Positions 6,665 to 64,000 of a DNA stretch of 64,000 nt are shown piece by piece (position 1 is the stretch's first letter; each line of letters opens with the position of its first letter). The position numbers were made by a program, and so were the translations under genes. This stretch comes from a virus. Taxonomy: Duplodnaviria > Caudoviricetes. The DNA lies in the IMG/VR virus record IMGVR_UViG_3300013947_000022, positions 128,001 to 192,000 of that record; one strand, 5' to 3'. Under the pieces are notes generated by a model. The model had not been told where the DNA came from and did not search any database. It saw nothing but the letters and a program-made list of their open reading frames with translations.

Positions 6665-6992
6665 ATTTAAATTAGGTTGGCTTTCTCCTGACGGTGAACT
6701 GGTAGGGTGTAATAGCTTTGACCACATCTCTTCTGCTTGTGAAATTTGCGATAAACTTAATTATTCTTATACTAATGCAAAAGGGAATGCTCCTGATGAT
6801 GTTTTACTTGCTCATGGGTGGTTACATCTAACATACTCCATGCTTGACCATGAATACAGGATTTATTACGCTTATTTTAATCATGTCAGGCTAACAGAAG
6901 CGCAAAAAAATTATATTCGTCCATTTAAAGAAATGGGTTATACCTTTGGAGATTTGTTTGAAACGACGTGGGAGGAAAATGATTTTGACTAA
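6648..6992 (+). CDS. hypothetical protein, GWLxPxG..H family
   Basis: paralog of 5896..6231. Confidence 0.7.
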   Translation: MNRHIEFKLGWLSPDGELVGCNSFDHISSACEICDKLNYSYTNAKGNAPDDVLLAHGWLHLTYSMLDHEYRIYYAYFNHVRLTEAQKNYIRPFKEMGYTFGDLFETTWEENDFD

Positions 6993-7347
6993 TTTAATCA
7001 AAAAGATTGCTTTAGTTCTTGTCATTGTTTTCTTCCTAACAGCACTTTTTTATATCTATATGAATTAGAGGGGCAAAGGCATGGACAATATTATTCATAT
7101 TCCATTTAGTTATGATATTTGGAAGCCCTCAGACATGAAATATTATATCGACAAAGAAACAAGACGTTGTTTTAAGTCTGACAATCCAGAACAGGTATTA
7201 AATCGTTCTTATTTTTCTATGTATGTAGAATGGTGGCTACACAATATCGGTTACTATCTCACCTATCCCTTTTGTGATGATTTTGACTATTTTTTCGATT
7301 TAAATAATAGGTTCAGAGACGTAGATTTAGAAGAATGGAGGACATAA
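6979..7347 (+). CDS. membrane-anchored hypothetical protein (TAG at 7066 read as Gln)
   Basis: GGAGG SD, ATG 6979, TM segment, single TAG, in frame with ORF 7081..7347. Confidence 0.55.
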
Positions 7348-7386
7348 ACCTTTTTACTTATTTCTAAACATTTTCATAAAACTCTA

Positions 7387-7439
7387 TTGACAACCTCCTT
7401 AGTCTGTGATATTATTATCATAGAAAATCTAAGGAGGTT
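7387..7439 (+). promoter_or_regulatory. sigma-A promoter with anti-SD in spacer
   Basis: TTGACA..TATTAT; aacctccttag / ctaaggaggtt. Confidence 0.7.
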
Positions 7440-7445
7440 ATCTTT

Positions 7446-7625
7446 ATGAAGCTTGATATGAGATTTGGTTGGTTAATGCTCCGCATTTTTGCCCTGCTCG
7501 TTACAATTTTCTATGCTGCTCAGAATGGAATTAATCTTTCTTTCCTTGGTTATTGTGTAGCTTGTGTTTTCACTTGGGCTATTGCTCTTAGATATGAAAA
7601 GAAGATTGCTATAAAGGAAAACTAA
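7446..7625 (+). CDS. small membrane protein (59 aa)
   Basis: AAGGAGG SD; two hydrophobic helices. Confidence 0.6.
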   Translation: MKLDMRFGWLMLRIFALLVTIFYAAQNGINLSFLGYCVACVFTWAIALRYEKKIAIKEN

Positions 7626-7631
7626 AAGGCT

Positions 7632-7943
7632 ATGAAACTTTGGATTGATGATATTAGACCTGCCCCAGAGGGTTGGTGCCAAGCCTATTCAGCTAATGCA
7701 GCTAAAGAAATGATTCTCGCTAACTGGGAGAATATTGAAATACTTTCAATAGACTATGACAGCGGAGATTATAATAAATTTGGAGGAGATTACATCAATA
7801 TTCTTAAATGGTTAGAGGAAGAAGAGCACAAAGCAAACAAAAAAATTGTAACTTTTCCTATCCAAATTCATAGTATGAATCCCGTAGGAGTACAAAATAT
7901 GCGAAATATTATTCAATATAATAATTGGAAAGAGGTAAAATAA
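7632..7943 (+). CDS. cyclic-phosphate processing receiver-like domain protein
   Basis: MKLWIDDIRPAPEGW, SIDYD and IHSMNPVG motifs. Confidence 0.7.
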   Translation: MKLWIDDIRPAPEGWCQAYSANAAKEMILANWENIEILSIDYDSGDYNKFGGDYINILKWLEEEEHKANKKIVTFPIQIHSMNPVGVQNMRNIIQYNNWKEVK

Positions 7944-8894
7944 ATGAGTCATTTAATTGATTTAACTGATTAGATTTTTAACGATATTAGAGTTATTAAA
8001 AGAAATACAGAATTAGATTCTGATAGAGGTGCAATATGGGATTGTTTATGCCCTTGCGGAAATATTTTTTAGGCTAACGGAAGCGCTTTAAGAAGAGGAA
8101 GAATTAAATCTTGTCGGCATTGTAAAGAAAAAGAAGAAATTACTCCTATACAGAAAAAACATTTGCAACAAAAATATTCAATTGGAGAAAAATTTGGACA
8201 CGCCACAATAATAGATTATTGCGACTACACTAAAACTCATCATACATATCTTAAATGCAAATGTGAATGTGGAAATATCTTTGATGCAAGAACCGATAGT
8301 CTTACCCAAAATTTAAATTGTGGTTGTTTAAAAAAAGAAAAAACCTCTAAACAATGGGCATCTAATTTATTGGGAAAAAGATTTGGTAAATTAACTGTCG
8401 TTGCAAAAGAAAAAATTCCCAATCAATATAGGAGTCTTTGGAAATGCGTATGTGACTGTGGAGAAATATGTTTTCTTCCCTCTCGTTACTTATTATCAAA
8501 TCAAGTTAAAAGTTGTGGTTGTGAAACTAAAAGTAAACGGGAACTTGAAATCCGAGGGATATTAAATCAAAAAAATATTAATTTTCAAACAGAATATACT
8601 TTTGACGATTGCGTTTCTACTCAATCTTATAAATTGCGCTTTGATTTTGCATTATTTAACAATTTAAATCAAGTTGTTGGCTTAATTGAATTTAATGGAA
8701 TACAACATTATAAACCTATTCCATATTGGGGCGGAGAAGAAAGATTTAATAGACAAAAAGAAAGTGACAATATAAAAAAAGATTATTGTTTTAATAAAAA
8801 GATTCCTTTGTTAATTATAAAATATACTGAATTGGGGAAAATAAACTTAGATGATTTTTTAAAACAGATTAATTTAACAACACAGGAGGACTAA
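7944..8894 (+). CDS. homing endonuclease, CxCxCG repeats plus PD-(D/E)XK/Vsr-like nuclease; two TAG=Gln codons (7971, 8070)
   Basis: MSHLIDLTD*IF matches the DLTGQxF motif; three CxCxCG..CGC-type repeats; LRFDF..IEFNGIQH. Confidence 0.75.
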
Positions 8895-20835: not shown

Positions 20836-21327
20836 ATGATTGTTGATGACATTGTTAATGGTAAGGTCGTTCCTTATGATGTAACTTCTGTTACGCTTAA
20901 TGTAAATGAAATCCCTGTTCCTGTTTTTATGTCTATTACAAATTCTATTAATTTATCAGATGATGAAAATTATTCTTATTTCGTCTATAGAAATCTTAGG
21001 GCTTATGATAAATGGGATTTAATTGATGAAAATGGTCAGAGACAGGAAGTTGATAATGATTTGGGTTGTTGGCTGAATGGTCTTATTAAGACTTATTTGA
21101 TGCTTTTCTTTAATTGGAATGTAACATATAAAATTCATGGTCAGGAAATTGCTGTCCTTGTTCATGGAGATAATCAGAATAGAGAATTTGATAATTATAA
21201 CTTTGATATTGAAAAGCTTGGCTTGAAGCCTTGTTATGATGAACATGGAAAGCTGTGTTCTATTATGGTTGAGTTTAATCTGTGCTTGGACAATACTATT
21301 GTTGAAAGTATGGAGAAGTACCAATGA
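20836..21327 (+). CDS. hypothetical protein
   Basis: 163 aa ORF. Confidence 0.65.
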   Translation: MIVDDIVNGKVVPYDVTSVTLNVNEIPVPVFMSITNSINLSDDENYSYFVYRNLRAYDKWDLIDENGQRQEVDNDLGCWLNGLIKTYLMLFFNWNVTYKIHGQEIAVLVHGDNQNREFDNYNFDIEKLGLKPCYDEHGKLCSIMVEFNLCLDNTIVESMEKYQ

Positions 21328-21578
21328 AGCAGAGCTTTAAAATTGATGAAGTTCTTGAGATTATCAAAAAGAATTTAAAAAACCTAAATAAACCAGAAGA
21401 TTCTCTTGATATGATGCAGGATATTCTCGATTTGCAAAGTATGAAAATGCTTATGAAAAATAATGAAAATATTTATTTTTCGGGTAATCTTTGGTGTATT
21501 GAGGTTGAATCTTTTGGCGAGATTAATAAATGGACTTTACCTAAGTGGATTGGAGATTTGTTGAATGATGAAGCGTAG
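21324..21578 (+). CDS. hypothetical protein (FKIDEV family)
   Basis: coupled start. Confidence 0.6.
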   Translation: MKQSFKIDEVLEIIKKNLKNLNKPEDSLDMMQDILDLQSMKMLMKNNENIYFSGNLWCIEVESFGEINKWTLPKWIGDLLNDEA

Positions 21579-22038
21579 ATTTAAAATTGATGAAGTCATT
21601 AATATGACTGACAATATCTATTATGTTACTGCTGATGATGTGAGAGATTTATGGGATTTGAAAGAAATTGGCTTTGAGAATGTCAGGTGGGTTAAGGATT
21701 TGTTTACAGAATTTGGTGGCTGCTGGATTGCTGAGAAAGATGATTATGAAATGTATGAAGCTGACTGTGACGATAGTAAGCATGGTGGAATGGTCGTTTG
21801 TCTGAGTGTGAGAGTTGGTAGAATGCTTAGTGAGTATTGCGAGAAAGAAAACAAGGTTGAAAATGCCAGAACTAAAAATAAGGTTGAAATTTTGATGTAT
21901 GATTTGCATGATAGTCTTAACAAGTGGAATGGAGATAATCAAAAAGGCGTGGAAAGAATTATTCTTGTGTTGGAAGATTTAGTTGATGTGTTTAGACAAA
22001 TTAGGGATAAGCAGATTGATGATGTTGAATTATATTGA
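21565..22038 (+). CDS. hypothetical protein (FKIDEV family)
   Basis: GGAG SD. Confidence 0.65.
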   Translation: MMKRRFKIDEVINMTDNIYYVTADDVRDLWDLKEIGFENVRWVKDLFTEFGGCWIAEKDDYEMYEADCDDSKHGGMVVCLSVRVGRMLSEYCEKENKVENARTKNKVEILMYDLHDSLNKWNGDNQKGVERIILVLEDLVDVFRQIRDKQIDDVELY

Positions 22039-40262: not shown

Positions 40263-40292
40263 AATTATATCACAGAATCTTGGATTTGTCAA
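40263..40292 (-). promoter_or_regulatory. sigma-A promoter for the DUF932 gene
   Basis: TTGACA-17-TATAAT with TG on - strand. Confidence 0.7.
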
Positions 40293-41107: not shown

Positions 41108-41185
41108 TGTTCATACCTCCAAAATTTTATTTGAGTTTATTTTAAATCATCTAAGATGATTTGTCAATAGGTTTTTAAGCTTATT

Positions 41186-41380
41186 TTAATGGACATTGCA
41201 GAAGAAATCTTCTTCTACAAAGGTTACACCATCATAGTGTTCAAAGATGATTTCATCAGGAATCTCTTCGGGGGTACTAAATGTACCCTCGTTAATATCC
41301 TGAGTTTCATCTTGGTAAAAGAAATTGGACTTGAGCTCATTAAGCTCATCGCGAGTTAAATCCTGAACCATTTTAATCAT
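41186..41380 (-). CDS. small acidic hypothetical protein
   Basis: AAGGAGG SD. Confidence 0.65.
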   Translation of the reverse strand: MIKMVQDLTRDELNELKSNFFYQDETQDINEGTFSTPEEIPDEIIFEHYDGVTFVEEDFFCNVH

Positions 41381-41685
41381 TATTTATTCCTCCTTAACAT
41401 TCAGTCTTCTCAATGGTCATATCAAAATGTTCCTGACCGCGCTCTTCAGCTTCATCAATCTTTTCGTTGATATACTGAAAAAATTCTTCACGGGATTCGC
41501 AGAAGATGGCAGTACTGTCTTCTTCACCGAGACAAAAAGATAAAATTTTGTTTTTAGTCATAATAATTTCCTTTCTTTTTTTAAAAAAGTTCTTGACAAG
41601 TGGTTATTGATGTGTTACAATACCTACAGAGTCAAGAGACCCGTAACCTCTCAACTCTGTAGGATATTAATTTTGATTTCTTCTC

Positions 41686-41766
41686 TTATAGCTCAAGGAA
41701 ACCAGTAAGCACTATTACATAGTAATAAATGCCAAATTTGTAATCAACAAACTTAGTTTTCTACAT
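41686..41766 (-). CDS. amber-containing micro-peptide 4, M*KTKFVDYKFGIYYYVIVLTGFLEL
   Basis: GAAAGGAG SD; family homology. Confidence 0.8.
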
Positions 41767-41908
41767 GGCTTTCATCTCCTTTCCTCCTTAGACAAGGGTT
41801 TCATTTATATGAACAGCTTACGGGGCTGGAGTTTTTATGGTGGAGAGATGAAACTTGAAGCCCGTACTTCCTTGCTTCATCTCTCGTGACGCATTCTAAT
41901 TTCTTAGA

Positions 41909-41989
41909 TTACAGCTCTAAGAAACCAGTTAGTACTATTACAAAGTAATAGATATTATGCGTATAATCAAGCTATCTTAGCTTACGCAT
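41909..41989 (-). CDS. amber-containing micro-peptide 5, MRKLR*LDYTHNIYYFVIVLTGFLEL
   Basis: GAAAGGAG SD; synonymous changes relative to peptide 4. Confidence 0.8.
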
Positions 41990-42319
41990 CAACAACCACT
42001 CCTTTCTGATTGTTGTATCTATGTGAACAGTTACGGGACTGAGTTTCACAAAGATTAGGAACAGGTTTAGCCCTGTTCCTTTCTTTTTCTCCTTTTTTAA
42101 TACATATAATACTCATCGTCATGATGAATATAACGTTCAGTCAAATCCTTCAAAGGTTGACTGATTTTCTTGGGCTTCTCTTTAAGGCGTGAATCTTTAA
42201 AGGCTCGATTTGTATAGTATCGGAATTTTCCATGTCCCTTTACCATCTTATTGTGACGCTGGGCTTGAAAAACTTCATGTTCATTCATTCCCATTTGTTT
42301 CACCTCCTTTAGTTTGTTA

Positions 42320-42643
42320 TTAATAATGATATCTGCCCCTTTGGGGATTTTCTTCCTTCCTTTTGCAATCAAACACCTTACTAATGTTGTAAGCCCAGAT
42401 AGAATCACCGAGACTTGTATCAATACAAGGTTGAACACGAATCGGGAAATGGATTGAAGCACAATAATCTTCAATCCGCTTAAGTTGGAATTTGCGAAAA
42501 ACGGTGATTGTATCACCTTTGAGCAGAGCTTTAATATCTGCCTGCTCAAGAGTATCAATCAAAAGATTGAGCTTGCTGTTGCTATCAATGTTATTGATAG
42601 CCTCGTTCATATAGCGTGTAGTCATGTTTGTCATAGCAGACAT
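42320..42643 (-). CDS. hypothetical protein
   Basis: GGAGG SD. Confidence 0.65.
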   Translation of the reverse strand: MSAMTNMTTRYMNEAINNIDSNSKLNLLIDTLEQADIKALLKGDTITVFRKFQLKRIEDYCASIHFPIRVQPCIDTSLGDSIWAYNISKVFDCKRKEENPQRGRYHY

Positions 42644-42874
42644 TTTACTTAGCCTCCTTTTTAATTTTACCCATAACTTTCATTTCGTCCTCATCAAATT
42701 GGGAACAGATTTTCAACTCTTTTTGATACCAGAGCTGTTGGCATTTCTTACATTGGACAATGTCATTCTGCATTACCACAAACTTGTGGGAAATGCAATG
42801 TGGATTGGGGCAAAAAGCTGTGAATTTCATTTCCGATTTCTCCTTATTATTCTCAAGTTTTTTGTAAATTCTTC

Positions 42875-43126
42875 TTGACAAGCTAAATAAACTATGTTAT
42901 AATCTTCAACGGTTAAAGAGATGAGCGAATGAAACTCAGAGCTCTTTAACTGAGATTGGGTTAAGTTGTGGCGAACTTGTTAGACCTCAATCTTACCACC
43001 GAGGATATGTGACACCACGGTGACATTGAAGAAATAGTTTATTGACTAAATCTTACGCATTTGGAAGTCCTCCTTTCTTATGTGATAAGAACAATCAGAC
43101 AAGCACAAATGAGTGCTTGTCTTTTT
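42875..43126 (+). ncRNA. cassette 6 antisense RNA
   Basis: TTGACA-17-TATAAT, 5' hairpin, terminator agacaagcac/gtgcttgtct+T. Confidence 0.6.
42980..43060 (-). CDS. amber-containing micro-peptide 6, MRKI*SINYFFNVTVVSHILGGKIEV
   Basis: GAAAGGAGG SD; family homology. Confidence 0.75.
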
Positions 43127-43343
43127 GTTTAGAAATAATACTTAAAGTAACAGTCAACAGGTTTGACTGTCACTTTAGCCGAAGAATCCAAACCCATCTT
43201 GGTTGTTTTAATAACATAACCAAATCTGGCGTAAGCATCTTTTATGCTTCTTGCTACTACGTCGCCTTCATATAGCTTGGATTGACCTCCAAGCTGTGCA
43301 ATGTAGGCTTTAACATGGTATTTAGATTTGCGCTGAATAGGCA

Positions 43344-43529
43344 TTATTCCACCTCCTTTTCTTTGTAATGAGCGCATTGGTCAACCTTGAAGTAAACTCC
43401 ATGATTGTACCAATATTCTACTCTTTTTGTATTGAACTGTTTATGGTAAAGGCAAATCTCTTTGTTTCCACAAGTAACGCAGAGATTAGTGTTCTTCTTA
43501 AGATACTCCTGCTTTTCTTTGAGCGTCAT
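43344..43529 (-). CDS. small Cys-rich protein
   Basis: AAGGAG SD. Confidence 0.55.
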   Translation of the reverse strand: MTLKEKQEYLKKNTNLCVTCGNKEICLYHKQFNTKRVEYWYNHGVYFKVDQCAHYKEKEVE

Positions 43530-43574
43530 TTTCTTTCTCTCCTTTTCATTTTTATTTTTATTGTTAAATTTCTC

Positions 43575-43878
43575 TTGACAAATATTAAGAGTTATGCTAT
43601 AATTCTCTCAAAGAGTAAAGAAATCCCGTATTCTTTCAATACTCTTTGAGGCTATTAGTTTGTAGGGACAGTTTACTTTATATTTCATTTATCAGACTTC
43701 CATGAAGCCAGTCAAAACTACGACGTAATAGTAAACATTGAATTTGTAATCAAGCTACTTCATTTTTCGCATATATTATTTCACTCCTTTCTTTTCTCAA
43801 GACGGAGAGGTTGTCCTGCGATACGGGAAGGACTATGTGAAAAAGATTGAGCAACGGGCAGGTTGCTCTTTCTTTTTT
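43575..43878 (+). ncRNA. cassette 7 antisense RNA
   Basis: TTGACA-17-TATAAT; loops CCCGTAT / ATACGGG; terminator. Confidence 0.65.
43692..43772 (-). CDS. amber-containing micro-peptide 7, MRKMK*LDYKFNVYYYVVVLTGFMEV
   Basis: GAAAGGAG SD; family homology. Confidence 0.8.
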
Positions 43879-43888
43879 GATTTTTACT

Positions 43889-44215
43889 TTATTCCGTGGT
43901 AATGACCCATTCTTCTCCATTCCCATCAATAATATGAACCACTTCGTTATTGATAGTAACAGATTCTAAATTGCAGAGCCAAGACTCTACAATCTCAGTG
44001 TGGTTTGTCATTGAAGCTTCTTCAGCTTCATGTAAGCCGTCCTCAAAACCTACGTTATAAGAGCCAGTTAAATCTTCCTCAGAGTAGAGAGTGGTGTCCT
44101 TGATGGCATAGGACTTTTCGCCCATGTCCCATCCAAGATAGAACATGAAGATACTGCAAAGGGTTGTAACCAAAGCAACGATAAGACCGATATTTTCCTT
44201 GACCTGATTTTTCAT
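43889..44215 (-). CDS. membrane-anchored hypothetical protein
   Basis: N-terminal TM segment. Confidence 0.65.
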   Translation of the reverse strand: MKNQVKENIGLIVALVTTLCSIFMFYLGWDMGEKSYAIKDTTLYSEEDLTGSYNVGFEDGLHEAEEASMTNHTEIVESWLCNLESVTINNEVVHIIDGNGEEWVITTE

Positions 44216-44248
44216 TTTTCATAACCTCCGAATATTTGTAAATAATAC

Positions 44249-44549
44249 TTGACAAACGCTAAATGTTATGGTATAATTCTCTCAAGAAGTGAGGAATCCC
44301 GTATTATTCTCTCACTCCTTGAGGCTATTGGTTTGTAGGAATTGGCTTCAATGAATTAGAGCTCCATGAAGCCACAGCTTACTATTGTAAAATAGTAAAC
44401 ATTGAATTTGTAGTCAAGCTACTTTAGATTCTTCATTGAATCACCTTCCTTTCTTCCTCTAACTGAGGGATTGTCGCACTATACGGGAGCGACTTTTTTA
44501 GAATGGAAAAGATTGAACGACTCGTTGCGGGAGTCGTTCTTTCTTTTTT
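44249..44549 (+). ncRNA. cassette 8 antisense RNA
   Basis: TTGACA-17-TATAAT; loops CCCGTAT / ATACGGG; terminator. Confidence 0.65.
44356..44436 (-). CDS. amber-containing micro-peptide 8, MKNLK*LDYKFNVYYFTIVSCGFMEL
   Basis: GAAAGGAAGG SD; family homology. Confidence 0.8.
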
Positions 44550-45423
44550 ATTTGCCTTCAATGACTTTCTCAACAAAGAGCCCCATACAACCTTCGGGAT
44601 GCTTTGTGGAAACATCTTTGAATTCCTTTCGCTGTGCGTCGATAAAATCAGTTGAAGTGTCATATTGCTCAAGAGCTTTAACAAGCTTAATTGTTTTAAG
44701 CATATCGTTTCCATAACGCTTATAAGCCTGATACCCAATGTTGAGACTGGCTTCCACGAAAGCTTTACTATCGTGGTCAGCCCAGCCACTCAAATCAATG
44801 AGCGCGAGTGCATAATTAACGCCTTCATCTCCGAACTCATCGTGAATCTGAAGAAGCTTTCTGGGAGCGGTGATATTACGAAGACTGCCCTTCTTACCTC
44901 CAACTGTGACATTGTATTTGTCACAAATTTTCAGAATAGAAACAGCAGGCTCAAGATTTAATTTTCGAGCACAGTTAAACATATCTGCGGGGGAAACTCT
45001 GGTTACGCCATCATTCTGGTGCATGAATAAATAAGCTTCTTCTTCAACGGTTAATCCATCAAAGAGCCTGCACCAAGCCCATTTATATCCTTTTGCATTA
45101 AGAGATTCAATGGTATGATGCCCATCCCAGCATTCAAGATACCCATCACGGAAATTGAGAGATTTAACTTCACTCCGCTTATAGTCAAAATTGCGGAGAA
45201 TGGACAAATAAGAATGCTTAAGGTCTCTCTGTCCTTCAAAAAGATTGATAAGATTGAGAGGAACTTTTACCATCGTCCAAGGACGGGAAGGATTCTCACG
45301 AATCTCTTTGAGCGCGGGAATCAGAACCGTCTTAGCCCATGTGGAGTTCATATCCACCTTGATACGTTCAACGCCGAGAGTGTTCTTGCTGTTGATGCTG
45401 TTCATGTTGACCTTCTTCTTCAT
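44548..45423 (-). CDS. ParB/Srx-like N-terminal domain protein (DUF6551-like)
   Basis: QR..., WDGHHT, EEAYLF..QN motifs. Confidence 0.6.
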   Translation of the reverse strand: MKKKVNMNSINSKNTLGVERIKVDMNSTWAKTVLIPALKEIRENPSRPWTMVKVPLNLINLFEGQRDLKHSYLSILRNFDYKRSEVKSLNFRDGYLECWDGHHTIESLNAKGYKWAWCRLFDGLTVEEEAYLFMHQNDGVTRVSPADMFNCARKLNLEPAVSILKICDKYNVTVGGKKGSLRNITAPRKLLQIHDEFGDEGVNYALALIDLSGWADHDSKAFVEASLNIGYQAYKRYGNDMLKTIKLVKALEQYDTSTDFIDAQRKEFKDVSTKHPEGCMGLFVEKVIEGK

Positions 45424-45487
45424 AATCCTGTGTCCTTTCTGGTGTTATAGACTTTTCCTTGTCTAAATAAAATATTTAGAGTACAAA

Positions 45488-45542
45488 TAAGCACTCTATG
45501 GAGGGACAGAACTATCAAGCTCTGTCCCTCTAACAATGCTTA
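45488..45542 (-). repeat. conserved stem/internal-loop motif, copy 1
   Basis: + strand TAAGCACTCTAT-[hairpin]-TAACAATGCTTA. Confidence 0.75.
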
Positions 45543-45743
45543 TTAGAACCGCATCACTTCGGTGCGGTAAATCTTGCCAGTCTTAGACTGATTATAGCGC
45601 TTAACTGCGCCATAGTTAATGGACTGAGCAATTTCTTTGGGCTTACTCTCTTCATTGTAATGACAAGTCTTACAAGACTTGCCATTACAAATCCCCATCT
45701 CAACCAGAGATTTGCATTTCTTGGTCATAATATTAGAATCCAT
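45543..45743 (-). CDS. small Cys-rich protein
   Basis: AAGGAG SD. Confidence 0.6.
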   Translation of the reverse strand: MDSNIMTKKCKSLVEMGICNGKSCKTCHYNEESKPKEIAQSINYGAVKRYNQSKTGKIYRTEVMRF

Positions 45744-45804
45744 ACTGTTCTCCTTTCGGCTTATAGCCTTATAAAATTGTTTACAGGAACTTTATATAAA
45801 ACAC

Positions 45805-46012
45805 TTGACAAATATAGCCAAGTGTGTTATAATCAGAGACAGTTAAGAAAGATGCTGTCACATCAATCTTAACTGCTCTTGTGGATTTATATCAGATTAT
45901 TACCAGATAACCTCCGATAATAATACCGAATGCCACTATGTTGTACTAACGTACAACGTCGATAGTAATGCGCATATTACTACCTCCTTTCTGAGTGCTG
46001 ATTTGACTTGCT
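45805..46012 (+). ncRNA. cassette 9 antisense RNA (3' end uncertain)
   Basis: TTGACA-17-TATAAT, 5' hairpin with loop CTGTCA. Confidence 0.5.
45892..45975 (-). CDS. amber-containing micro-peptide 9, MRITIDVVR*YNIVAFGIIIGGYLVII
   Basis: GAAAGGAGG SD; same architecture. Confidence 0.7.
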
Positions 46013-46068
46013 TAAGCACTCTATAGAACGTCAGAAGTTATCTCCTTCTGACGCTCTAACAACGCTCA
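46013..46068 (-). repeat. conserved stem/internal-loop motif, copy 2
   Basis: + strand TAAGCACTCTAT-[hairpin]-TAACAACGCT. Confidence 0.75.
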
Positions 46069-46125
46069 ATCGAGCAATATCAAAGAGATATGTTTGACCA
46101 GTTCATACCTCTTTGACATGGATGA

Positions 46126-46281
46126 TTAGTCTAAGTCTAACTTAGTTACATCAATCTGGAAGAATTCAATTAGCGAATCAACACTCATGTGTTGCGTATA
46201 CCAATTAAATTCAAACTCAGAAGTGATATTCTATAATAGAATAGCATCAATCTTCATTTTGTTCATAAGACTGTCTTCCAT
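46126..46281 (-). CDS. 51-aa hypothetical protein with TAG=Gln at codon 17
   Basis: GAAAGGAGG SD; single in-frame TAG. Confidence 0.55.
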
Positions 46282-46371
46282 GAATTCCTCCTTTCTTGTA
46301 ACAAGCTAAGTGGGGTTAGCTGTTATTAATATCCTAATTGGTCACTTTAGGATGGAGTCTTAGCTACGAAC

Positions 46372-46426
46372 TAAGCACTCTATTAAGCCCACCATCAATT
46401 ATGATGATGGGCTTTAACAATGCTTA
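46372..46426 (-). repeat. conserved stem/internal-loop motif, copy 3
   Basis: + strand TAAGCACTCTAT-[hairpin]-TAACAATGCTTA. Confidence 0.75.
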
Positions 46427-47008
46427 CACGCAATGCAATGTATTATAATAATAATACATTGTACGGTCAAATTCTCTTATAACGGTTTTTAACTCGTTTG
46501 AGTCCTTTAGAAGAGCAATTAACTTACCCTTCACTCTGTCAAGGCGATACATATCATTGCTCTTAACAGCGTAGTAACCATCTACGTGGATGAGTTTGTT
46601 GACCTTGTTACGCATCTCCGTATTCACTTTTTTTAATTCCTTTCGCTCCTTTCTCAAGGGAGACTTTAAAATTTATTATTGCCGAGACTTGTGGAATAGG
46701 ACTCATTTGTTTATACTCGTTGAATCCTTTAGAGACGAGTTGAAGAGTTAGATGTGGCGAATGTACCACATAAAGCTCTTCTTGCCTCCTGTGAGGCGAT
46801 AGATAAGGTACATTGCCATTACAGCAACGATACCAAGAGAAAAGATGATACTGAAAACGATAGAGATAAACATGAGAGCGAACATTTTACTGTTCTCCTT
46901 TCTGGTGTGAAGATTCTGTGTTGGTTTCCCATCATCAGTGCCGTAGTAACCAGCTACGACAGACAGAGAGAGATTTTACCCTCTCTCCCTGTTTCGGGAT
47001 TTAGTATA

Positions 47009-47230
47009 TCAGAACTTGATATACTCCACGAACAGCTCGGTTGCGAGTGAAGAATAAATGTTGCTGTCAAGGACAACAACCTTATCTTCACCCCAGTACA
47101 GAGCGAGAATCTTATTGGTACGCTTGATAGCGTAACCCTTGTTGTCCTCGACAATGCCGAGGTCAATCTTGGCGTTGGTAGCGTTGGTGTCCTCGATGGC
47201 ATTGAGGATGTTCTTTTCAAGTTTGGTCAT
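47009..47230 (-). CDS. hypothetical protein
   Basis: GAAAGGA SD before ATG 47230. Confidence 0.6.
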   Translation of the reverse strand: MTKLEKNILNAIEDTNATNAKIDLGIVEDNKGYAIKRTNKILALYWGEDKVVVLDSNIYSSLATELFVEYIKF

Positions 47231-47299
47231 GACTGATTTCCTTTCTGGTTTTAACGTCTTGTAACCTGACGATGATAAGAAATATTTATTATAAAACAC

Positions 47300-47525
47300 T
47301 TGACAAATAACCTATCAAGTGATATAATACAAACATAGAGAAGAAACCTATATTTCTTCTCTATGAGGAGATTCAAGGATTTTAGAGAATCCAAGAACCA
47401 TCAAGAATAATGCTATAGCTGATTACACCATTATTCTTATCTATAGATTTTACAATCTACATTGTAAATCCTCCCTTCTTCGAGGATAAAAGTCAATATG
47501 AATTATAGGCTTCATAATGACTATT
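47300..47525 (+). ncRNA. cassette 10 antisense RNA (may extend through downstream hairpins)
   Basis: TTGACA-17-TATAAT; loops CCTATA / TATAGG. Confidence 0.6.
47382..47462 (-). CDS. amber-containing micro-peptide 10, M*IVKSIDKNNGVISYSIILDGSWIL
   Basis: GAAGGGAGG SD; same architecture. Confidence 0.7.
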
Positions 47526-54380: not shown

Positions 54381-54584
54381 AAAATGCAAATAGGAAAGAG
54401 AAAAATAAAATTCAACTTTTATTTTGCGGGGTTGAGAATGTCTGTTTTTGAGTGATTGTGATAATTATAAGGGGTTAAATTTGTTGATAACCTTTGTTTT
54501 TAAGAGAAATTCGAACTTGAAATTTTTCTTGACAAAACATAGATAGTGTGTTATAATAGAGATAATCAGATAAGACAATACAAA

Positions 54585-55491: not shown

Positions 55492-58400
55492 GTGCATCTA
55501 CTTTATACTGTTAAGCTTAGTAGTACAATTTTGAAAGACAACAAGTATAAACTTAATTTGTCGTTTAAAGAGTGTTTTAAAAGTGGTCTCGTAGTATCTT
55601 TAGCAGATTCTCAAATGCTAAAAAGTATTCGTGACGTATCAGGGTAGGTTGTTGATTATGCTCTGGTTGATGAATGGTATAATAAACGAGACAAACTAAA
55701 AAAGAAAAAGAAACTAAACAAAACCAAAGAAGAAGATATATATATCTATCCAGATAAAAAGGAAAGAATGACTGAAGTTGCGGCATTGGCGGCATATCAA
55801 AAAGCAATTTATGATATGATGTATATTTCACAGTATATTACCGTAACAATGGACAGTGTTTCAGATTATAAAAAGATTTATGAAACGGGTTTCCTTTTTA
55901 ATGGTCGTTGGTTTAAAAGAATTTCTTGTTCCGCTTCTCAAGCGCGAGTAAGTACGGTAGTGTTTTGTGATAGTGGAAATGAGGAGGATTTTAAGAAGCA
56001 AATTGAGCCTCTTGATAGTATTCGTATTCAAGTGAGAGATAGGCTTGATAATGGACGTGATATGTTTCACCCGCTCGCTGCGAGCAAATACAATGCTTAT
56101 TTTGGTTTATATTCAAGTGCAACAAAGCAAGTTACAAAACCAAGATTTTGTATTGTAAAAGATTATTGCGAAGTTAGACCAGTTGATGTTGATTTTGTAA
56201 TAGAACAGCCACCTGATGAAGATGATATAATAGAACCTCGTACAATGGATGTAGAATTTAATTGTTGGGATGGTTCTGGTTTGATTAGCCCTGCTATGGC
56301 AGAAGTTTGGGGCAAAGACCTTGGAGAAGATTATACGCCTTGCCAATTCTGTATCCGTTGCGCGTTTACAAAGGGAGCTTTAAACGAGTTTGACTTTGTA
56401 GAATGGTGTAAGGAAGAAAACGATGGGAATTATATCATAAAAGATGTTTATCGGAATGATAGAGATTTAAGAGAAGTTGATGTAATTCTCACTGAAGGTA
56501 TGGCTAAACTTTGGGATAGCTGGGAGTCTCAACAATCTTTTGAAGATAATTGCGAAAAGAATCGGATTATCTGGGGTGTAACGAAATATGCTCCTAAGAA
56601 AGATAAAGAAGTAAATACAGCAAATTATCAATTTCTCCAAACGTTAAATCTTACAGATAATATGGTGAAAGATGTTTGTGCTGAAACTGTGAAGTATATT
56701 CAAGGGGTTAGTTACGATAATATTTATTATACGCTTCTGTTTTTAATGGGTGAGAATCTTGATGAAAAAAGTATTGAATCTTTTTTAAGTTCAAGTGATA
56801 ATTGGTGGTTGAAGAGTCTCGTTTTAAATCACAATCTTTTTAATGATAAGTACACAAAAGAAAAAATTCGTGATTTCATTGTTAGAAAGATAGAATTGGC
56901 TTGTTTGCGGAAGATTTTAATCCGTGGTAATTTTCAATGTATTGTAGTGGATGGCTATGGGTTTATGCAATCTATTACGGGACATAAAGTAACTGGATTG
57001 CTTAAAGCTGGTCAAGCGTGTTGTAATTTCTGGAATGAAAGACGGATTAATAAAGTTGATACTATGCGTAGTCCTTTAACTCATTTTAGTGAACATTATC
57101 CTATGGACTTGGTTGATAATGAAAAGACTCGTAAATGGTTTAGCTATGATTATAGTGGTTATATTGTAAATTGTCATGATGCTCATACTATGAGGTGGGC
57201 CGGTAGTGACTACGATGATTTAAAGCACGAAAGTGCTTAATACATTGTCGCCCATGATAGTAATATTATGGTGAAAATGTGGTGAACCTGTAAATACAGG
57301 GTGTGGAACTTAGGTTCTGCTAACAGGGAAAGCCTAAACCGAAAGGCATGGTAACTCTGTGGTAAACTCTTAATGAGAAACTCAAACGACTATCCCGTAA
57401 GGGAGTACATTTACGGTGAAATTCCGTATTTGGAAGCGCCACACATCCTATAGGGATGATGATATAGTCTACTCCGACATTTGAAATAAAATGTGTTAAA
57501 GTATTGGGAAACCAACGGTATTAAAGGTATGATATAATTTTTTCCACTGATAATCCAAACTTTATTAATGGACGTTATCCAAATCAAAGAGTTGTAACAT
57601 ATCAAGCTAAAAAGCCTAAAAAGGAAATTTTCAGAAAAGAAGATGGAACTTTTGACAGAGAAGCTTTCGATAAAAAACTTTTTGTAACGGATACATTTAG
57701 TTTCGGAACTAAAATTGGACAGATTAGGTAAAAGTAGTCTGGCTATTCAGTAATGAATAGAAAAATAAACGTGTGTGAACTTAGAAATCTAAGGTGTGGG
57801 TTTAGTAAACCTGCTAACGGGGAAACCTAAGTCGAAAGATATGGCAATCCCGTGCCAAGCAGTGAAGGTGTAACGACTATCCCGCAAGGGAGTACATTCA
57901 CGGTGAAACTCCGTGTTTGGAAGCGCCACGCATCCCATGAGGATGAAGATATAGTCTACCCTCTTAAGAAATTAAGAGATTAGTGTACAAATACAATTTC
58001 AACAGTAGTAGGACTTTTGCCTCTTTTCCCAGAGGGTTCGAAAGAGCGCGAAGTTTTGATTAATCGAGTAAAGGCTGGGTGTGCTGCTCAGTCAAGACAG
58101 ATTGATAAAACAAAGATTGGTCAAAACGTCAAAGAACTTGCTACAGTTTGTCGCAATTTTCAGCACATAGAAGAAACAGATGATGAAGCAACGGTAGAAA
58201 GGAAGAAGTTTCTTAATTCTATTCTTGCTGATAAAAAGCCTTATTTCTTTAGATATAAATATACTCAAACTGATAAAGAATTGAAGCATTATCTAAAGAA
58301 GAGAGAAGAGAAACTTAAGAATAAATTTGGTAACGCTTGGAATCTTGAAAGACTTTTGAATACGCCAGAAGAAGAATTAACTGATGAGTTAAAAGAGTTT

Positions 58401-58970
58401 AAGAGACAGTATTACGATTTCCTTCCTGTTGTCGATTCTGATTGTGTAATGAACAGAATTAGTCATTATATTGAAAGTATTGATTTCGAGATAAAGAAGA
58501 GGGTACGTTCTTCTGATGCTTTTGATTATAGGATTCTTCAAAGTGAAAACTTTATGATAAATAAAAAGATTTATGAACAGATTTATTATACGGTTGAAGA
58601 ACATATTAAGAATTGGCAAATAAAAAGAAAAGTGACAGATACAAAAACAATTCAAGACGGGAACAATGAAAAAGTTATTGCTTATTCTGCTTTAAAAGAA
58701 GCTCTTGAACAGATTTGCCCAAATGATGAAATTGTAGCAAATCATATGATTACTTTGTTTTATGAAGATAAACCTTCTTATAATAAAGGAATTTTATGGG
58801 AGCTTTATGGTAGACAAATCTTTGAAAATTTGAAAACAAAAGTAAATTCGTGTTATTTCCCCAAAAAGAATCCAAATGGAACCCTTGAGTTTTTATATGA
58901 AAATTACTCTATTGAAAAGGTCGATTTAAATAAAGTGGAGGTTGAAAACATTGATAGAAATTTACAATGA
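55492..58970 (+). CDS. YonO-like single-subunit RNA polymerase (RdRP-like fold); exons 55492-57216, 57528-57724, 57986-58970; TAG=Gln at 55645
   Basis: SLADSQ, SASQAR, KYNAYFGL, DGSGLI, F-x-KG and RSP motifs; splicing gives GSDYDYD and IGQITN. Confidence 0.85.
57217..57527 (+). ncRNA. group I intron (ORF-less) inside the catalytic motif
   Basis: 5' exon ends in U paired to IGS GUCG; P7 GACUA/UAGUC; terminal G; removal restores frame. Confidence 0.85.
57725..57985 (+). ncRNA. group I intron (ORF-less)
   Basis: exon CAGAU pairs IGS GUCUG; P10 GUA/UAC; P7 GACUA/UAGUC; terminal G; restores IGQITNT. Confidence 0.85.
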
Positions 58971-59967
58971 AACAAAACATATTTAGACCGTCCTTGAAAA
59001 AGGGTTAGGTAAAAAATGGTTTACTGATTTGACTCTTTTAGTAAAATACTGGAAGAGTCAAGGATATTCAAAAAAGCAAGTAAAAGATATGTGCATTGAA
59101 AAATGCAATAGGTATGTTAAGAATTTCAATTCTATAAAAGATGGACCAGATTTGAAGAAATCTGTTGACAAAGTTTGGAGAGATTGGAAAACAAAAGGGG
59201 AGAATCCATCTAAACTTAGAGAAATAGATTACGTTGAATTTCCAAAAGAAGTTCTCGATTGGTTTCTTGCTTTGGAGGATGATTTTACAATTACAGAGGA
59301 AGAACGAGATAGAATAAATGAACTTCGTGCTCCTACTAAAGTAAAGAAAACACCGATGAATTTTAATCGTATTAAAGTGTTATTTACTCTTTATGTTTGG
59401 AGTCTTATTCAAAAAGAATATATGGCTGGTGGTTGGAATTATTTTAATTTGGATGATTGGTATTCAAAATTAAAGAAAGATTCTGATTTGCCGACCAGTT
59501 ACAATATTCTTAATGAGAGAAACATCCTTGAAGATTTAGGCTTTCTTAAAACCACTGAAAAAAATGTTGACGTTATTCTTGAGCTATTTGATAAGTTCGA
59601 TGTGTTTAATACAGAAGTTACAGATAAGAACAGGATGAGGCTTGAGGGTGAAGATTTATATAATTGCGGTCATTGGTTAAAGAAGCATAAATATAATTGG
59701 TTTGTTTGTGAACATTGTGGAAAAGAAGTTTTTGATAAAAATAAACCTTTAGGTGGGAGACCTCGCAAATATTGTAAAGAATGCGCTGAAACTTTGAAAA
59801 TGGAAGAAGCGGATTTAGTGGTTTATTGTGAAAAATGTAAAAAACCATTAGTTAGAAATGCTTCTATGCATCGTTTTAAAGGATTGTGTCGTGATTGTCA
59901 AAACAAAAAAAACAATTTCAACAAATTACTTTTTAAACACAAGAAAAATATAAGCGGCGAAACGTAA
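58951..59967 (+). CDS. phage protein downstream of RNAP with C-terminal zinc fingers; TAG=Gln at 58984
   Basis: GGAGG SD, TTG 58951, in frame with 59029 ORF; four CxxC. Confidence 0.7.
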
Positions 59968-60608: not shown

Positions 60609-60893
60609 ATGATTAAGAAGAATGATATGCTTACTGCTATTGCTACCAAGTGTGAAGAGGCTGGCTTGAAGATTACCAAGAAGGACCTTGACACTGTTCT
60701 TAAGGCTCAGAGTGATTTCCTGCTTGAGACTATTGCTGCCAACGAGGAAGTTAAGATTGGCGATGTTGTTAAGATTGGTGGAAAGCATCGTGATGCTCGT
60801 AAGGGACGTAATCCTGCGACAAATACCGAGATTACAATCCCTGCTCGTGAGGGAGTTCCTTACGCCAAGTTTACCAAGGTTGCAAAAGAGTAA
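60609..60893 (+). CDS. hup: HU-family DNA-binding protein
   Basis: ARKGRNPAT..I.IPA..P.F arm motif. Confidence 0.85.
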   Translation: MIKKNDMLTAIATKCEEAGLKITKKDLDTVLKAQSDFLLETIAANEEVKIGDVVKIGGKHRDARKGRNPATNTEITIPAREGVPYAKFTKVAKE

Positions 60894-61177
60894 AATACAA
60901 AGTAACTATTAATAAGACATTAATAGCTGTATAAAGATACTTAAGGCGTAACGCCGTTTGCCCCCAAAGTATTGTCTTAAACGATGATACTTTGGGGTAT
61001 CATTATAAACTGTATAAAACATATGTAAATATACATTACACACAAATAAAATGTATATTTTATAGAGTTTATAATATTCATAATGAATATTATTTAGGTC
61101 GGCAAGACCGCCCAAGGTTTACTTGGAGAAAGGGTTGAATAAACCCTTATTTTAATATAAAGGAATGATGAAAGGAT

Positions 61178-62215
61178 ATGCAAAAGCCAAGAAAAAGTCT
61201 TTGGAAAATGGATATCATAACCCGTAATGACTTTATAAAAATGGTTATGCGTAATGCGGATAGTACCGACAAAAAAGAGGCTGAAAAATATGTTGAGGCT
61301 TTTGAAGACGCTGTTCTTGAAGTTATTGCTCGTGAACAAGTCATAAAATTGTCTTTCGGTACAATATATGGCATCTTTAAAGCCCCTTGGAGAATTACGG
61401 GAAAATTTAAGGCTGAACACAATAGCAAAGCTCGTAGAGGTTGGAGTGATGCAAAACACGGACAACCTAATATTATTTGGTCCATATTGGCTAAGGATAG
61501 TGATACTGTAGACCCAGAAGAATATTTTTCATGGTCTGAAAACAGATATACGAAATTGGCTTATCAGTATAGAAAAGACATGGATTTGCCCGAAATACCT
61601 GAGTTTGAGGGATTAACGGAAGAAGAAATCCTTAATCAATGTGCCGAGTTTGAAAAATCTCAACTTGGTAGAAAGGCTCGTGCTAATTATGACCTTTATG
61701 AATGTTACAAAACGAGAAAAAATCATGATAGGTCTGTTCAGACTCAAGAATACTGGATTGAAAAACAAAGGAAGAAAGGTATTCCCGAAGACCAAATTCA
61801 GCGTCTCACTTATGAAGAGATTCTTGAAATTCAAGATAAAAGGAGACGTGATTATATTGATAAGCAAACGGATGCAAAAATTCGTAAAAAGGTTGAACAG
61901 TCTCGCAAAAACGAGCAAAAACGACGCGATTATTATGGTTTTCCTCCGTTACCAGATGATATGCCAACATCTTACGAGGTTGCCGCGAAACAATATCTGA
62001 TTGATGTTCGTGGAACTTATGAGTCATTATTTGGTGAGGGAGAAGGAAAAATTCCCGATAGAAAGGCAGATAATAATCTTCAAGAATTATTTGCTGAAAG
62101 ACGAGAAAAGAATCGCTTGAGAAAGATGATTGAAAATGGAGATTTGGTTTCTGAGGAAGAAATTGATGAGTATGTTAGACGGAACCCATATCTCGCAGAC
62201 AAGCCGTTAGATTAA
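61178..62215 (+). CDS. protein with N-terminal HU/IHF-like domain and charged extension
   Basis: ITRNDFIK..KKEAEKYVEAF..V..VI..IKLSFGT. Confidence 0.6.
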   Translation: MQKPRKSLWKMDIITRNDFIKMVMRNADSTDKKEAEKYVEAFEDAVLEVIAREQVIKLSFGTIYGIFKAPWRITGKFKAEHNSKARRGWSDAKHGQPNIIWSILAKDSDTVDPEEYFSWSENRYTKLAYQYRKDMDLPEIPEFEGLTEEEILNQCAEFEKSQLGRKARANYDLYECYKTRKNHDRSVQTQEYWIEKQRKKGIPEDQIQRLTYEEILEIQDKRRRDYIDKQTDAKIRKKVEQSRKNEQKRRDYYGFPPLPDDMPTSYEVAAKQYLIDVRGTYESLFGEGEGKIPDRKADNNLQELFAERREKNRLRKMIENGDLVSEEEIDEYVRRNPYLADKPLD

Positions 62216-62236
62216 TTGAAAGGATGGTGTTGCTTG

Positions 62237-63088
62237 ATGGCAATGACCGTAAAGGAAAAACAGTTGAGACAATTGGTCGTCGATACTGCTGAAGCATGGG
62301 TTGGAACCAAACAAGGCGACGCCAACCATAAAAAAATAATTGAGACTTATAATAGTATCGAACCATTACCTGAAGGCACAAAAATGCTTTTGTCATGGGC
62401 ATGGTGTGCGGCTACGATTTCAGCGTGGTCACAGATGGTGGGGTTGATAAATTATATTTTACCAGAGTGTTCCTGTAATCGTATGATTAAACTTTACAAA
62501 GCTAAAAAGGAATGGGTCGAAGATGATGATTATGTCCCAGAGATGGGAGATATTCTTTTTTATGCTTGGAAAGATAACGGAGTTGGAGATTGCGAACTCG
62601 AAGCAGACCATGTGGGTATCGTAAAAGAAGTTAAAAATAATATTATTTATGTTATTGAGGGAAATTATTCCAAGCAGGTAAAAGTGCGTCAAATTAAGGT
62701 TAATGGTAAATATATTAGAGGCTTTGCTACACCTGATTATAAGACAGCAAGTAAGATTTATGATTTTAAGAAAAAGGTTTCTGTTAAGCCTGTTATTTCA
62801 AATACAACTGCTACAAAAACTAATACCACAGTATTACCTTCTGTAAAAACTATTGCGTCTGTTGTCCCTTATCTTAAGAAGGGGGATAAAAACGATGCTG
62901 TTAAGGTTATGCAAACAGTTTTGATTTATCTTGGTTTCGATTGTGGTAAAAGTGGAGTTGACGGCAGTTTTGGCAACGATACTGTTAAAGCCGTAAAATC
63001 TTATCAAAAGGCAGTCGGAATTACACAAGATGGTATTTGCGGAAAAGATTGCTGGAAGAATATGTTATTAGGGAAGAAAACTAAATAA
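62237..63088 (+). CDS. endolysin: CHAP amidase plus peptidoglycan-binding domain
   Basis: AWCA, GDI, HVGIV, IEGN; DGSFG.DT..AVK.YQ..DGICG. Confidence 0.85.
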   Translation: MAMTVKEKQLRQLVVDTAEAWVGTKQGDANHKKIIETYNSIEPLPEGTKMLLSWAWCAATISAWSQMVGLINYILPECSCNRMIKLYKAKKEWVEDDDYVPEMGDILFYAWKDNGVGDCELEADHVGIVKEVKNNIIYVIEGNYSKQVKVRQIKVNGKYIRGFATPDYKTASKIYDFKKKVSVKPVISNTTATKTNTTVLPSVKTIASVVPYLKKGDKNDAVKVMQTVLIYLGFDCGKSGVDGSFGNDTVKAVKSYQKAVGITQDGICGKDCWKNMLLGKKTK

Positions 63089-63164
63089 TTAAATAATAAA
63101 GCAATAAAATAAGAGGGTTTCAATTAACCCTCTTTTCATATATAGGCGAAGGAGGTTAGAAGAT

Positions 63165-63461
63165 ATGGCAAGAATTTATGATGCGACTACAGGAAAGATT
63201 ATTGATAAGGAAACTGGCGAAGAAGTTACCATGCCTTCGTCTTCTATTGAAATTGGAGAATTAAAAGTTGGGCCTGCGTATGATTTTCGTACCACGGGCA
63301 ATACTAATTTTGATAATACTAAAACTCAATTTGACCAAAGTTATGCTGACACTAATCAACAAATTACAGAAGTATACGAAGATATGGTTGATGTTGTTAT
63401 TAGTACCGAACAGCCTAAACATCAAAAGGTTGGCGATTTGTGGTATAAGGTTATTGAGTAA
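63165..63461 (+). CDS. hypothetical protein
   Basis: AAGGAGG SD; C-terminal S..QP..GDLW motif. Confidence 0.65.
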   Translation: MARIYDATTGKIIDKETGEEVTMPSSSIEIGELKVGPAYDFRTTGNTNFDNTKTQFDQSYADTNQQITEVYEDMVDVVISTEQPKHQKVGDLWYKVIE

Positions 63462-63509
63462 AATATAAATAGAATTCAAATGTTTAAAAGGTTTAAAAGG
63501 TGGTGACTT

Positions 63510-64000
63510 ATGGCTAAATTAGGTCAAGCTGCCAGAGTTAGAGAATAGCAAAAGGCTGAAAAAGAAATTAACGCTATTCAAAAGAAAATGGAACTTCAAA
63601 ATAAGAAGTCTTTATTCGGAGAGGGCTGGAAAAAGGCTTTGGGTACGGAAAGACAAAAAGCGTTGCTTGACATTATTGGTAATGAAGGTGCGCCAAAGCT
63701 TGAAGATTCTATTGATATAAATGCTTTTTTAGAGCCGATTGAGTTTTTTAGAGATAAAGAAACTGGGGAAATTAATAAGATTGATTTTCAAACTTATCTT
63801 GATGCTGAAAAAGCTTTCCAAGGTGGCATTGATGAACAAGATGCAATTATTGCTGATGAAGATGATGTTACCCCTGATATAATGGATAAAATAAACTCTG
63901 GCAAAAAGAGTAAAAAAGAAAAGAAAAAAGAAAGTGGAATTAATGTTCCTGAATATTTACAGAAATATTATACAATGTGGATGAAATATTTTGGAAGATA
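63510..64000 (+). CDS. hypothetical protein (3' truncated), TAG=Gln at 63546
   Basis: AAGGTGG SD; frame open to window end except one TAG. Confidence 0.6.

Follow-up and report, generated by a model that had tools for sequence, protein, structure and literature searches.

Amber codons read as glutamine are concentrated near the starts of replication, transcription and packaging genes in a recoded phage genome

Why should a stop codon that a phage reads as an amino acid occur once in a gene of many hundred codons, and then so often within the first few dozen of them? The question is raised by a 64,000-nucleotide stretch of the genome of a gut-type Caudoviricetes phage (hereafter the window), bases 128001–192000 of the 215,374-bp IMG/VR virus record IMGVR_UViG_3300013947_000022, which is judged 99% complete and has a GC content of 34%. 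A sequence-only reading of the window had proposed that the amber codon TAG is recoded to glutamine and that sparse N-terminal ambers act as on/off gates, above all on a phage RNA polymerase (RNAP). The TAGs that it cited at 7066, 7971, 8070, 55645, 58984 and 63546 on the plus strand and at 46231 on the minus strand all lie in the frames and at the codon numbers that it assigned to them, each in conserved coding sequence. Genome-wide there are 163 in-frame TAGs in 69 genes, and TAG is in conserved use across several near-complete genomes. The density per 1000 codons is 5.1 at genome positions 1–60 kb, 1.25 at 60–128 kb, 0.66 in the window and 5.8 at 192–215 kb. Most TAGs belong to structural genes and genes for homing endonucleases that lie beyond the window. 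For comparison, the genome (G000) was aligned gene by gene to two whole relatives, G005, the closest, and G003, whose RNAPs are 95% and 79% identical to that of the present phage over the query stretch; two further relatives (G001 and G002) and a set of related IMG/VR loci or contigs (L018–L022, L024–L026 and L030) were also used. The NrdD gene, together with intron matches to Enterocloster, Enterococcus and Staphylococcus phages, suggests an anaerobic member of the Bacillota as host.

The assignment of TAG to glutamine is fully supported by the comparative data, because the substitution spectrum, a gain in coding density, the near absence of TAG terminators and a phage-encoded tRNA(CUA) all agree with it; the recoding proposed earlier thus stands. 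With a simple gene caller, the coding density of the whole genome rises from 0.787 under code 11 to 0.860 when TAG is a sense codon, mostly through genes outside the window. Read-through of TGA, used as a control, lowers the density to 0.775, and this alternative code was rejected. In the alignment with G005, the TAGs of the present phage stand opposite TAG (37), CAA (25), CAG (8), GAA (6) and a scatter of other codons, so that 25 of the 60 changed sites are CAA and 8 are CAG. When the 20 amino acids were scored on the empirical substitution pattern, glutamine led all other meanings by over 100 log-likelihood units in the G005 comparison and by 21 in that with G003. Since CAA is two changes away from TAG, this signal is not one of mutational proximity.

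Domain matches likewise continue through the amber codons. The PHROG match of the tape measure protein runs across seven TAGs, the ATP-cone Pfam match of NrdD comprises residues 1–89 with the TAG at codon 10 included, and PHROG matches to HNH endonuclease and RNAP families cover the TAGs of those genes. As terminators, TAGs are nearly absent. Of the 114 genes called in the window under code 11, only two have a TAG at their end, namely the N-terminal stub of the RNAP and a call at 21324–21578 that reads TAG-ATx-TAA at its end. The latter belongs to an 86-residue gene (21324–21584, plus strand) with a TAG as penultimate codon, the sole possible TAG terminator in the window. Of about 114 genes in the window, no more than one could thus stop at TAG; the observation that credible genes end in TAA or TGA is borne out. 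TAG shows no excess in the last 20 codons of genes (8 of 155, compared with 9.9% for glutamine codons). It is very improbable that TAG specifies another residue, for example lysine, glutamate or pyrrolysine, or that it marks decaying pseudogenes. In the more distant G003, TAGs of the present phage are found opposite AAA (11) and GAA (8) as well, and the tRNA finder ARAGORN labels the tRNA 'Pyl', from the anticodon alone; but lysine and glutamate are the usual replacements of glutamine, which is the best meaning in both comparisons with CAA as the commonest partner codon, and 163 in-frame TAGs kept in several near-complete genomes are not a sign of decay.

The distribution of the codon within genes is strongly uneven. 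Genes of at least 150 residues with one or two TAGs have 39 of these codons in total, and 19 are found within the first 35 positions of a gene, a stretch that makes up 9% of all codons and holds 34 of the 389 glutamine codons of these genes. The bias is significant in the present genome (Fisher p = 3e-9), in G005 (1.6e-8) and in G003 (8e-13), and TAG exceeds every other codon in N-terminal enrichment in all three. The concentration of ambers near gene starts, first noticed in the window, therefore extends genome-wide and to two relatives. It involves the genes for the portal protein (TAG at codon 34 of 662), DnaB (27 of 633), RecJ (13 of 683), RecD2 (codons 3 and 31 of 826; genome 73093–75573), NrdD (10 of 1022), RNAP (52 of 968) and the protein encoded from position 63510 (13 of 553). 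TAG-rich genes show a weaker N-terminal excess (13 of 89 TAGs, for 5.7% of codons), and DnaE, LigA, UvrD, a PARP-like gene and a methylase gene are devoid of TAG in the present genome. When all in-frame TAGs of the genome are considered, the base that follows an N-terminal single TAG is seldom G (4 of 40, compared with 42 of 123 for other TAGs; p = 0.0025).

Could such a pattern arise from misplaced starts, the true ones lying downstream and the TAGs being ordinary stops or part of non-coding leaders? Open reading frames (ORFs) read with fewer stops do extend upstream, and short open extensions are common in AT-rich DNA, but an annotation artefact of this kind is extremely improbable. The same pipeline applied to TGA read-through yields 2, 2 and 1 genes with an N-terminal pattern in the three genomes, against 18, 17 and 17 for TAG, a control that excludes both chance and ORF extension. 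Most of the called starts have a ribosome-binding site (RBS) or directly adjoin the preceding gene; the nearest alternative start in the frame usually comes 20–100 codons later and mostly lacks an RBS. The protein sequence upstream of the TAGs is conserved, Pfam and PHROG domains run across them, and TAG alternates with CAA or CAG in relatives. When homologues were checked for starts downstream of the TAGs, none such was found, and their N-termini upstream of the TAGs are conserved.

The RNAP locus illustrates these features. The YonO-like single-subunit RNAP gene (55492–58970, plus strand) is composed of three exons (55492–57216, 57528–57724 and 57986–58970), which after splicing give 968 codons with a sole TAG (55645, codon 52) and 33 CAA or CAG codons; the gene had been described as having about 970 codons and a single TAG at codon 52, which is correct, and its division into exons is new. 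The product matches PF05183 over residues 123–514 (35.8 bits, with a cut-off of 23.8) and phrog_8308 over residues 8–575 (E = 2e-84). The two intervening segments, both on the plus strand, match the group I intron model RF00028: intron 1 (57217–57527) with 30 bits and E = 3e-5, and intron 2 (57725–57985) with 70.1 bits. Intron 2 contains a non-coding TAG at 57981 and matches non-coding DNA of Enterococcus and Staphylococcus phages. Rfam at the gathering threshold returned nothing for the whole window, and a local run based on E-values then found both introns. The orthologues of G005 and G003 are intronless, and both spliced junctions are identical to the G005 sequence. The putative metal-binding region has the sequence DYDYD, which is formed across the junction of exons 1 and 2 (DYD/YD) and is identical in G005; it is a candidate for the catalytic acidic motif of the double-psi beta-barrel. 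The 51 codons that precede the TAG are conserved in nine related loci, in which the TAG column is occupied by TAG (five), glutamine (two) or histidine (two); a second column, 11 codons upstream, holds glutamine here and TAG in three loci. The operon is preceded by a perfect extended −10 promoter of the sigma-70 type, TTGACA-17-TGnTATAAT (54529–54557, plus strand).

Three genes further downstream also carry an early TAG. The RNAP-adjacent gene (58951–59967, plus strand; 338 residues) carries a TAG at 58984, codon 12, and its N-terminus is conserved in eight loci; the TAG is at codon 12 here and in L018 and at codon 3 in L019, L020 and L025, and L021 and L022 have glutamine at codon 12. The 553-residue gene that begins at 63510 leaves the window at 64000 and continues to genome position 193171 (plus strand), with a TAG at 63546, codon 13, and a conserved N-terminus. 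The gene for the terminase large subunit, located 3' of it, also has a conserved N-terminus and contains TAGs at codons 22 and 148.

From one relative to another, the N-terminal TAG persists in the same genes and changes place within them. Between the present phage and G003 it moves from codon 27 to 8 in DnaB, from 13 to 40 in RecJ, from 3 and 31 to 7 in RecD2, from 10 to 16 in NrdD, from 52 to 41 in the RNAP and from 16 to 17 in a 163-residue protein; in the terminase it is found at codon 22 here, 51 in G005, 29 in G003 and 17, 29 and 46 in L026. Among G000–G003 orthologue pairs of at least 150 residues, with shared TAG columns set aside, 12 pairs have N-terminal TAGs in different columns, 9 have them in G000 only, 9 in G003 only and 38 in neither, which corresponds to an odds ratio of 5.6 (p = 0.0025) for retention. 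Judged from these alignments, what is conserved is the region in which TAG lies rather than its exact site.

Which tRNA would decode these codons? With default settings, ARAGORN found no tRNA(CUA) in either the window or the genome and only three tRNAs genome-wide. With introns allowed and a relaxed threshold, the tRNA(CUA) gene sought across the full genome was found, in split form, at genome positions 111750–112043, about 16 kb before the window; it is the sole tRNA(CUA) gene and forms part of a tRNA cluster. It carries a 219-nt insert in the anticodon loop between bases 35 and 36 (CU/A), which matches the group I model RF00028 with 34.8 bits and E = 7e-6, the gathering score being 50. The upstream exon ends in CTCT, the insert in GAAAG, and the downstream exon begins with AAAACC; U thus closes the exon and G the intron. 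G002 and G005 have the same tRNA gene without exactly those 219 nt, its halves abutting to form a 75-nt gene that default ARAGORN calls and whose T-stem shows a compensatory change; G003 has an intron-containing tRNA(CUA) with canonical D and T loops. An alignment of the suppressor to the tRNA-Gln(UUG) of a relative was uninformative and did not show common descent, so the glutamine identity of the tRNA rests on the codon substitutions, a weak, mismatched 1–72 pair and G73, the last two being a loose fit to a Gln-type acceptor end. Two other tRNAs contain inserts, tRNA-Pro(tgg) one of 47 nt and tRNA-Glu(ttc) one of 122 nt. A different tRNA(CUA), 90 nt in length and with a long extra arm, occupies the syntenic place in G001 (L030:1435–1524); its amino-acid identity may differ.

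The reading of a second codon varies with the same classes of genes. In genes with N-terminal TAGs, such as RecD2 and the RNAP, CGG stands opposite glycine 25 times and never opposite arginine, so these genes belong to the set expressed in the altered code of the phage. In TAG-free genes, CGG is found opposite glycine seven times and arginine five times (Fisher p = 0.0018 for the difference), the arginine cases including the genes at 40577–41107 and 42320–42643 on the minus strand, within a block of small genes described below. The phage thus appears to have a second reassignment, CGG to glycine, that follows the gene classes defined by TAG. ARAGORN calls a tRNA Arg(ccg) at genome position 110149, 26 nt behind a perfect promoter.

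Perfect extended −10 promoters of the sigma-70 type number 21 in the genome, putative ones in that each is a match to the consensus. They include the one at 54529, three on the minus strand of the small-gene block and one that ends 26 nt before the first tRNA of the tRNA cluster. Nine perfect matches fall within 20 kb, far above the expectation from base composition. The promoter of the RNAP operon is of the same perfect type as those in the TAG-free block; the RNAP mRNA could therefore be made early by the host polymerase, with the RNAP protein dependent on the suppressor. Genes placed first behind a perfect promoter almost all lack TAG, but a rough binomial comparison with the 77% background was not significant, and this was not used as evidence.

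The reading that we favour, with moderate confidence, is that TAG is decoded by the phage's own tRNA, that a single early TAG ties a set of key proteins to this suppressor and that selection keeps the codon there. The genes would fall into three tiers. The first comprises TAG-free genes, some of them with CGG as arginine, which could be translated by the unmodified host code. In the second, the sole TAG or TAGs lie in the first 50 codons or so, as in the YonO-like RNAP, its neighbour, the gene at 63510, the terminase, DnaB, RecJ, RecD2 and NrdD, and these proteins would depend on the spliced and charged suppressor tRNA. The third is made up of TAG-rich genes, that is, the tape measure, tail and homing endonuclease genes. 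Where the suppressor tRNA is missing, a ribosome on a second-tier mRNA would let go only a short peptide, so that a closed gate would be minimally costly; selection would then retain an N-terminal TAG in these genes and leave its exact site free to drift. The data show the recoding, the tRNA, the N-terminal bias and its retention through turnover; we infer that the dependency serves as a gate on timing or dosage.

A bolder version, offered tentatively and with less confidence than the dependency itself, sees in the N-terminal ambers a checkpoint on translation that acts throughout the genome and is under positive selection, a 'code-switch regulon'. Consensus promoters would let the RNA polymerase of the host transcribe the gated genes together with the TAG-free early ones and the tRNA cluster. 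Translation of the replication helicases and nucleases, of NrdD, of the terminase and of the YonO-like RNA polymerase, taken here to be a late one, would wait until the phage tRNAs (CUA for glutamine, CCG for glycine) have matured, with the gate at the 5' end so that its closure would cost just a short peptide. The original proposal of on/off gates is plausible as a mechanism and has been strengthened by the co-variation with CGG as glycine and by the consensus promoters before the tRNA cluster and the RNAP operon; the gating as such is still something that we infer.

A number of observations weigh against regulation. The tRNA lies behind an early-type promoter, which may leave only a short suppressor-free phase. 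Its elbow is non-canonical, with a D-loop that lacks GG and a T-loop that reads TGAGAGT. Because sister phages do without it, the tRNA intron is probably a tolerated mobile element and not part of the control. The genome has no match to a release factor (PF00472) or to a Glu/Gln-tRNA synthetase (PF00749); the search for a release-factor gene, suggested with that for the tRNA, was thus negative across the genome. The lysis genes (the endolysin and a second PG_binding protein) lack recoded stops, unlike in the published lysis-control model (Borges et al.). Among the related loci, L024 has no TAG in 21 kb, neither as stop nor as sense codon, and L026 has TAG through most of its genes, with 12 spread along its RNAP, so that the state with a single gate may be one stage as TAG spreads gradually. 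Tolerance that differs from gene to gene, rather than selection for a gate, could also explain why orthologues retain the codon. From sequence data, 'selected for' and 'tolerated only there' are not separable.

These points lead to the rival account that is most in need of weighing, a placement that merely minimizes cost. TAG would be imperfectly decoded in competition with host RF1. In genes that need a full-length product it would be purged where truncation is wasteful or harmful, and only over the first few dozen codons would it drift freely; the bias toward gene starts would then be an intermediate step in evolution, reached while a new sense codon spreads. The relatives do form a series, from L024 through G000, G003 and G005 with their N-terminal TAGs to L026, and may record how codon capture advanced step by step in the clade. 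Taken with the weaker N-terminal excess of TAG-rich genes, the series suggests that N-terminal sites may be where a costly new sense codon is first tolerated. In the N-terminal windows of genes with one or two TAGs, moreover, TAG makes up about one third of the Gln-type codons, comparable to or above the share of about 20% in TAG-rich genes. However, an N-terminal TAG cuts the yield of a protein as much as an internal one, and this account needs truncated products, not yield, as the cost. An N-terminal TAG stays in the same genes even where its site has shifted, other long genes (DnaE, LigA and UvrD) are without one in all three genomes, and CGG usage changes with the TAG status of genes, a sign of distinct phases of translation. 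We consider cost-minimizing placement a live rival, though somewhat unlikely, and retain suppressor dependence kept by selection as the preferred reading.

The endolysin (CHAP and PG_binding_1; 62216–63088, plus strand) is TAG-free, as had been remarked, and the second PG_binding protein (genome 114857–115831) has no TAG either; no holin was identified beside these two. Between the RNAP and the endolysin, a TAG-free gene at 60609–60893 encodes a 94-residue protein that resembles an HU/IHF-type DNA-binding protein by eye only. Upstream, a 122-residue membrane protein with an N-terminal transmembrane helix (6979–7347, plus strand) carries a TAG at 7066, codon 30, and has the RBS GGGAGG before its ATG; G001 and G002 have orthologues of it (80% and 72% identity, respectively) that extend over residues 2–122, with one TAG inside. 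An HNH/homing endonuclease of 316 residues (7944–8894, plus strand), whose ATG abuts the upstream stop, has TAGs at 7971 (codon 10) and 8070 (codon 43) and matches phrog_374 (HNH endonuclease) over residues 2–64 and phrog_559 over residues 35–303. Selfish elements are unusually abundant in the genome, TAG-rich HNH endonucleases among them. LAGLIDADG inteins split DnaE, NrdD, UvrD (genome 67355–73109, 80788–83856 and 94214–96937) and a 697-residue protein at the start of the window (window 3–1745).

The block of small genes on the minus strand (28000–54103) is TAG-free except for a 51-residue gene and a set of micro-ORFs, and has perfect sigma-70-type promoters at 52252, 49494 and 40292; it probably represents the early, host-code class. 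The 51-residue gene (46126–46281, minus strand), preceded by the RBS AAAGGAGG, has its TAG at 46231, codon 17, and this TAG is conserved in G003 within a match of 68.6% identity. Pfam and PHROGs gave no function for this gene, the membrane protein, the RNAP-adjacent gene or the gene at 63510. The micro-ORFs are ten hydrophobic paralogues of 23–29 residues (31843–47462, minus strand), with strong Shine-Dalgarno sites and exactly one TAG each. In agreement with what was first noticed, the TAG of peptide 3 (37625–37696), at codon 15, aligns with a CAA of peptide 1 (31843–31914). Eight of the ten face a convergent plus-strand promoter of the sigma-70 type about 100 nt past their stop (36703, 37525, 41593, 42875, 43575, 44249, 45805 and 47300), six of these promoters being perfect and two matching at 11 of 12 positions. 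The layout resembles that of type I toxin-antitoxin cassettes, in which case the toxin would be amber-gated.

How do these features compare with known systems? The recoding of TAG to glutamine, suppressor tRNAs, standard-code early genes and heavily recoded homing endonucleases are already known from phages (Borges et al., bioRxiv 10.1101/2021.08.26.457843; Peters et al. 2022, PMC9523058). Like the crAss-like and Lak phages of the gut that use code 15, the present phage has TAG in conserved genes, a phage tRNA(CUA), a subset of standard-code genes and recoded structural and homing-endonuclease genes, for which a role in expression timing has been proposed; the combination of TAG-free early-type genes with TAG-enriched structural regions, a feature of the late-gene model of Borges et al., is present. 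What sets it apart is a large intermediate group of genes for replication, transcription and packaging that have one TAG in the first 50 codons or so, the lack of release-factor and synthetase genes, its intron-split suppressor tRNA and a CGG-to-glycine change that tracks the same classes. Stop-codon recoding in phages is usually described per whole gene or gene block, late genes with it and early genes without; in the present phage, where in a gene the codon falls is informative, and one early TAG suffices to tie a protein to the phage suppressor tRNA. A literature search, incomplete in its coverage, returned no published description of an N-terminal bias of recoded stops, which leaves novelty unproven: the string 'N-termin' is absent from the preprint of Borges et al. 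(10.1101/2021.08.26.457843), other papers on recoded phages use it for protein domains and not for TAG position, and the infant-gut phage paper does not mention start codons or gene beginnings. There is also a practical consequence. Code-11 gene callers trim or split RNAP, DnaB, RecJ, RecD2, NrdD and TerL, and default tRNA finders miss the intron-split suppressor, so that such genomes can be misjudged as using the standard code.

The RNAP resembles YonO of the Bacillus prophage SPbeta, a single-subunit enzyme with two barrels, as a putative phage-encoded accessory RNA polymerase that matches PF05183 above the Pfam cut-off, and differs from it in the two group I introns that split its gene, in the TAG at codon 52 and in the DYDYD motif that spans an exon junction. 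The suppressor gene can be set beside bacterial and plastid tRNAs with group I introns in the anticodon loop, such as tRNA-Leu(UAA) and the Azoarcus tRNA-Ile (PMC13168695). It would share with them a self-splicing-type intron at that location, a last exon base U, a last intron base G and intronless close relatives; here, by contrast, the interrupted gene encodes a phage amber suppressor, the break falls at CU/A and the Rfam score is below the gathering threshold. If the N-terminal ambers are regulatory, they would give a phage a simple and testable means to order translation within one transcript, and would be the natural counterpart of the amber switches of synthetic biology. Engineered amber-codon switches (reviewed in PMC6412442) likewise use one UAG to make protein output depend on the supply of an orthogonal suppressor tRNA; the phage arrangement differs from them in being natural and genome-wide, in inserting a standard amino acid and in having a site that is evolutionarily mobile.

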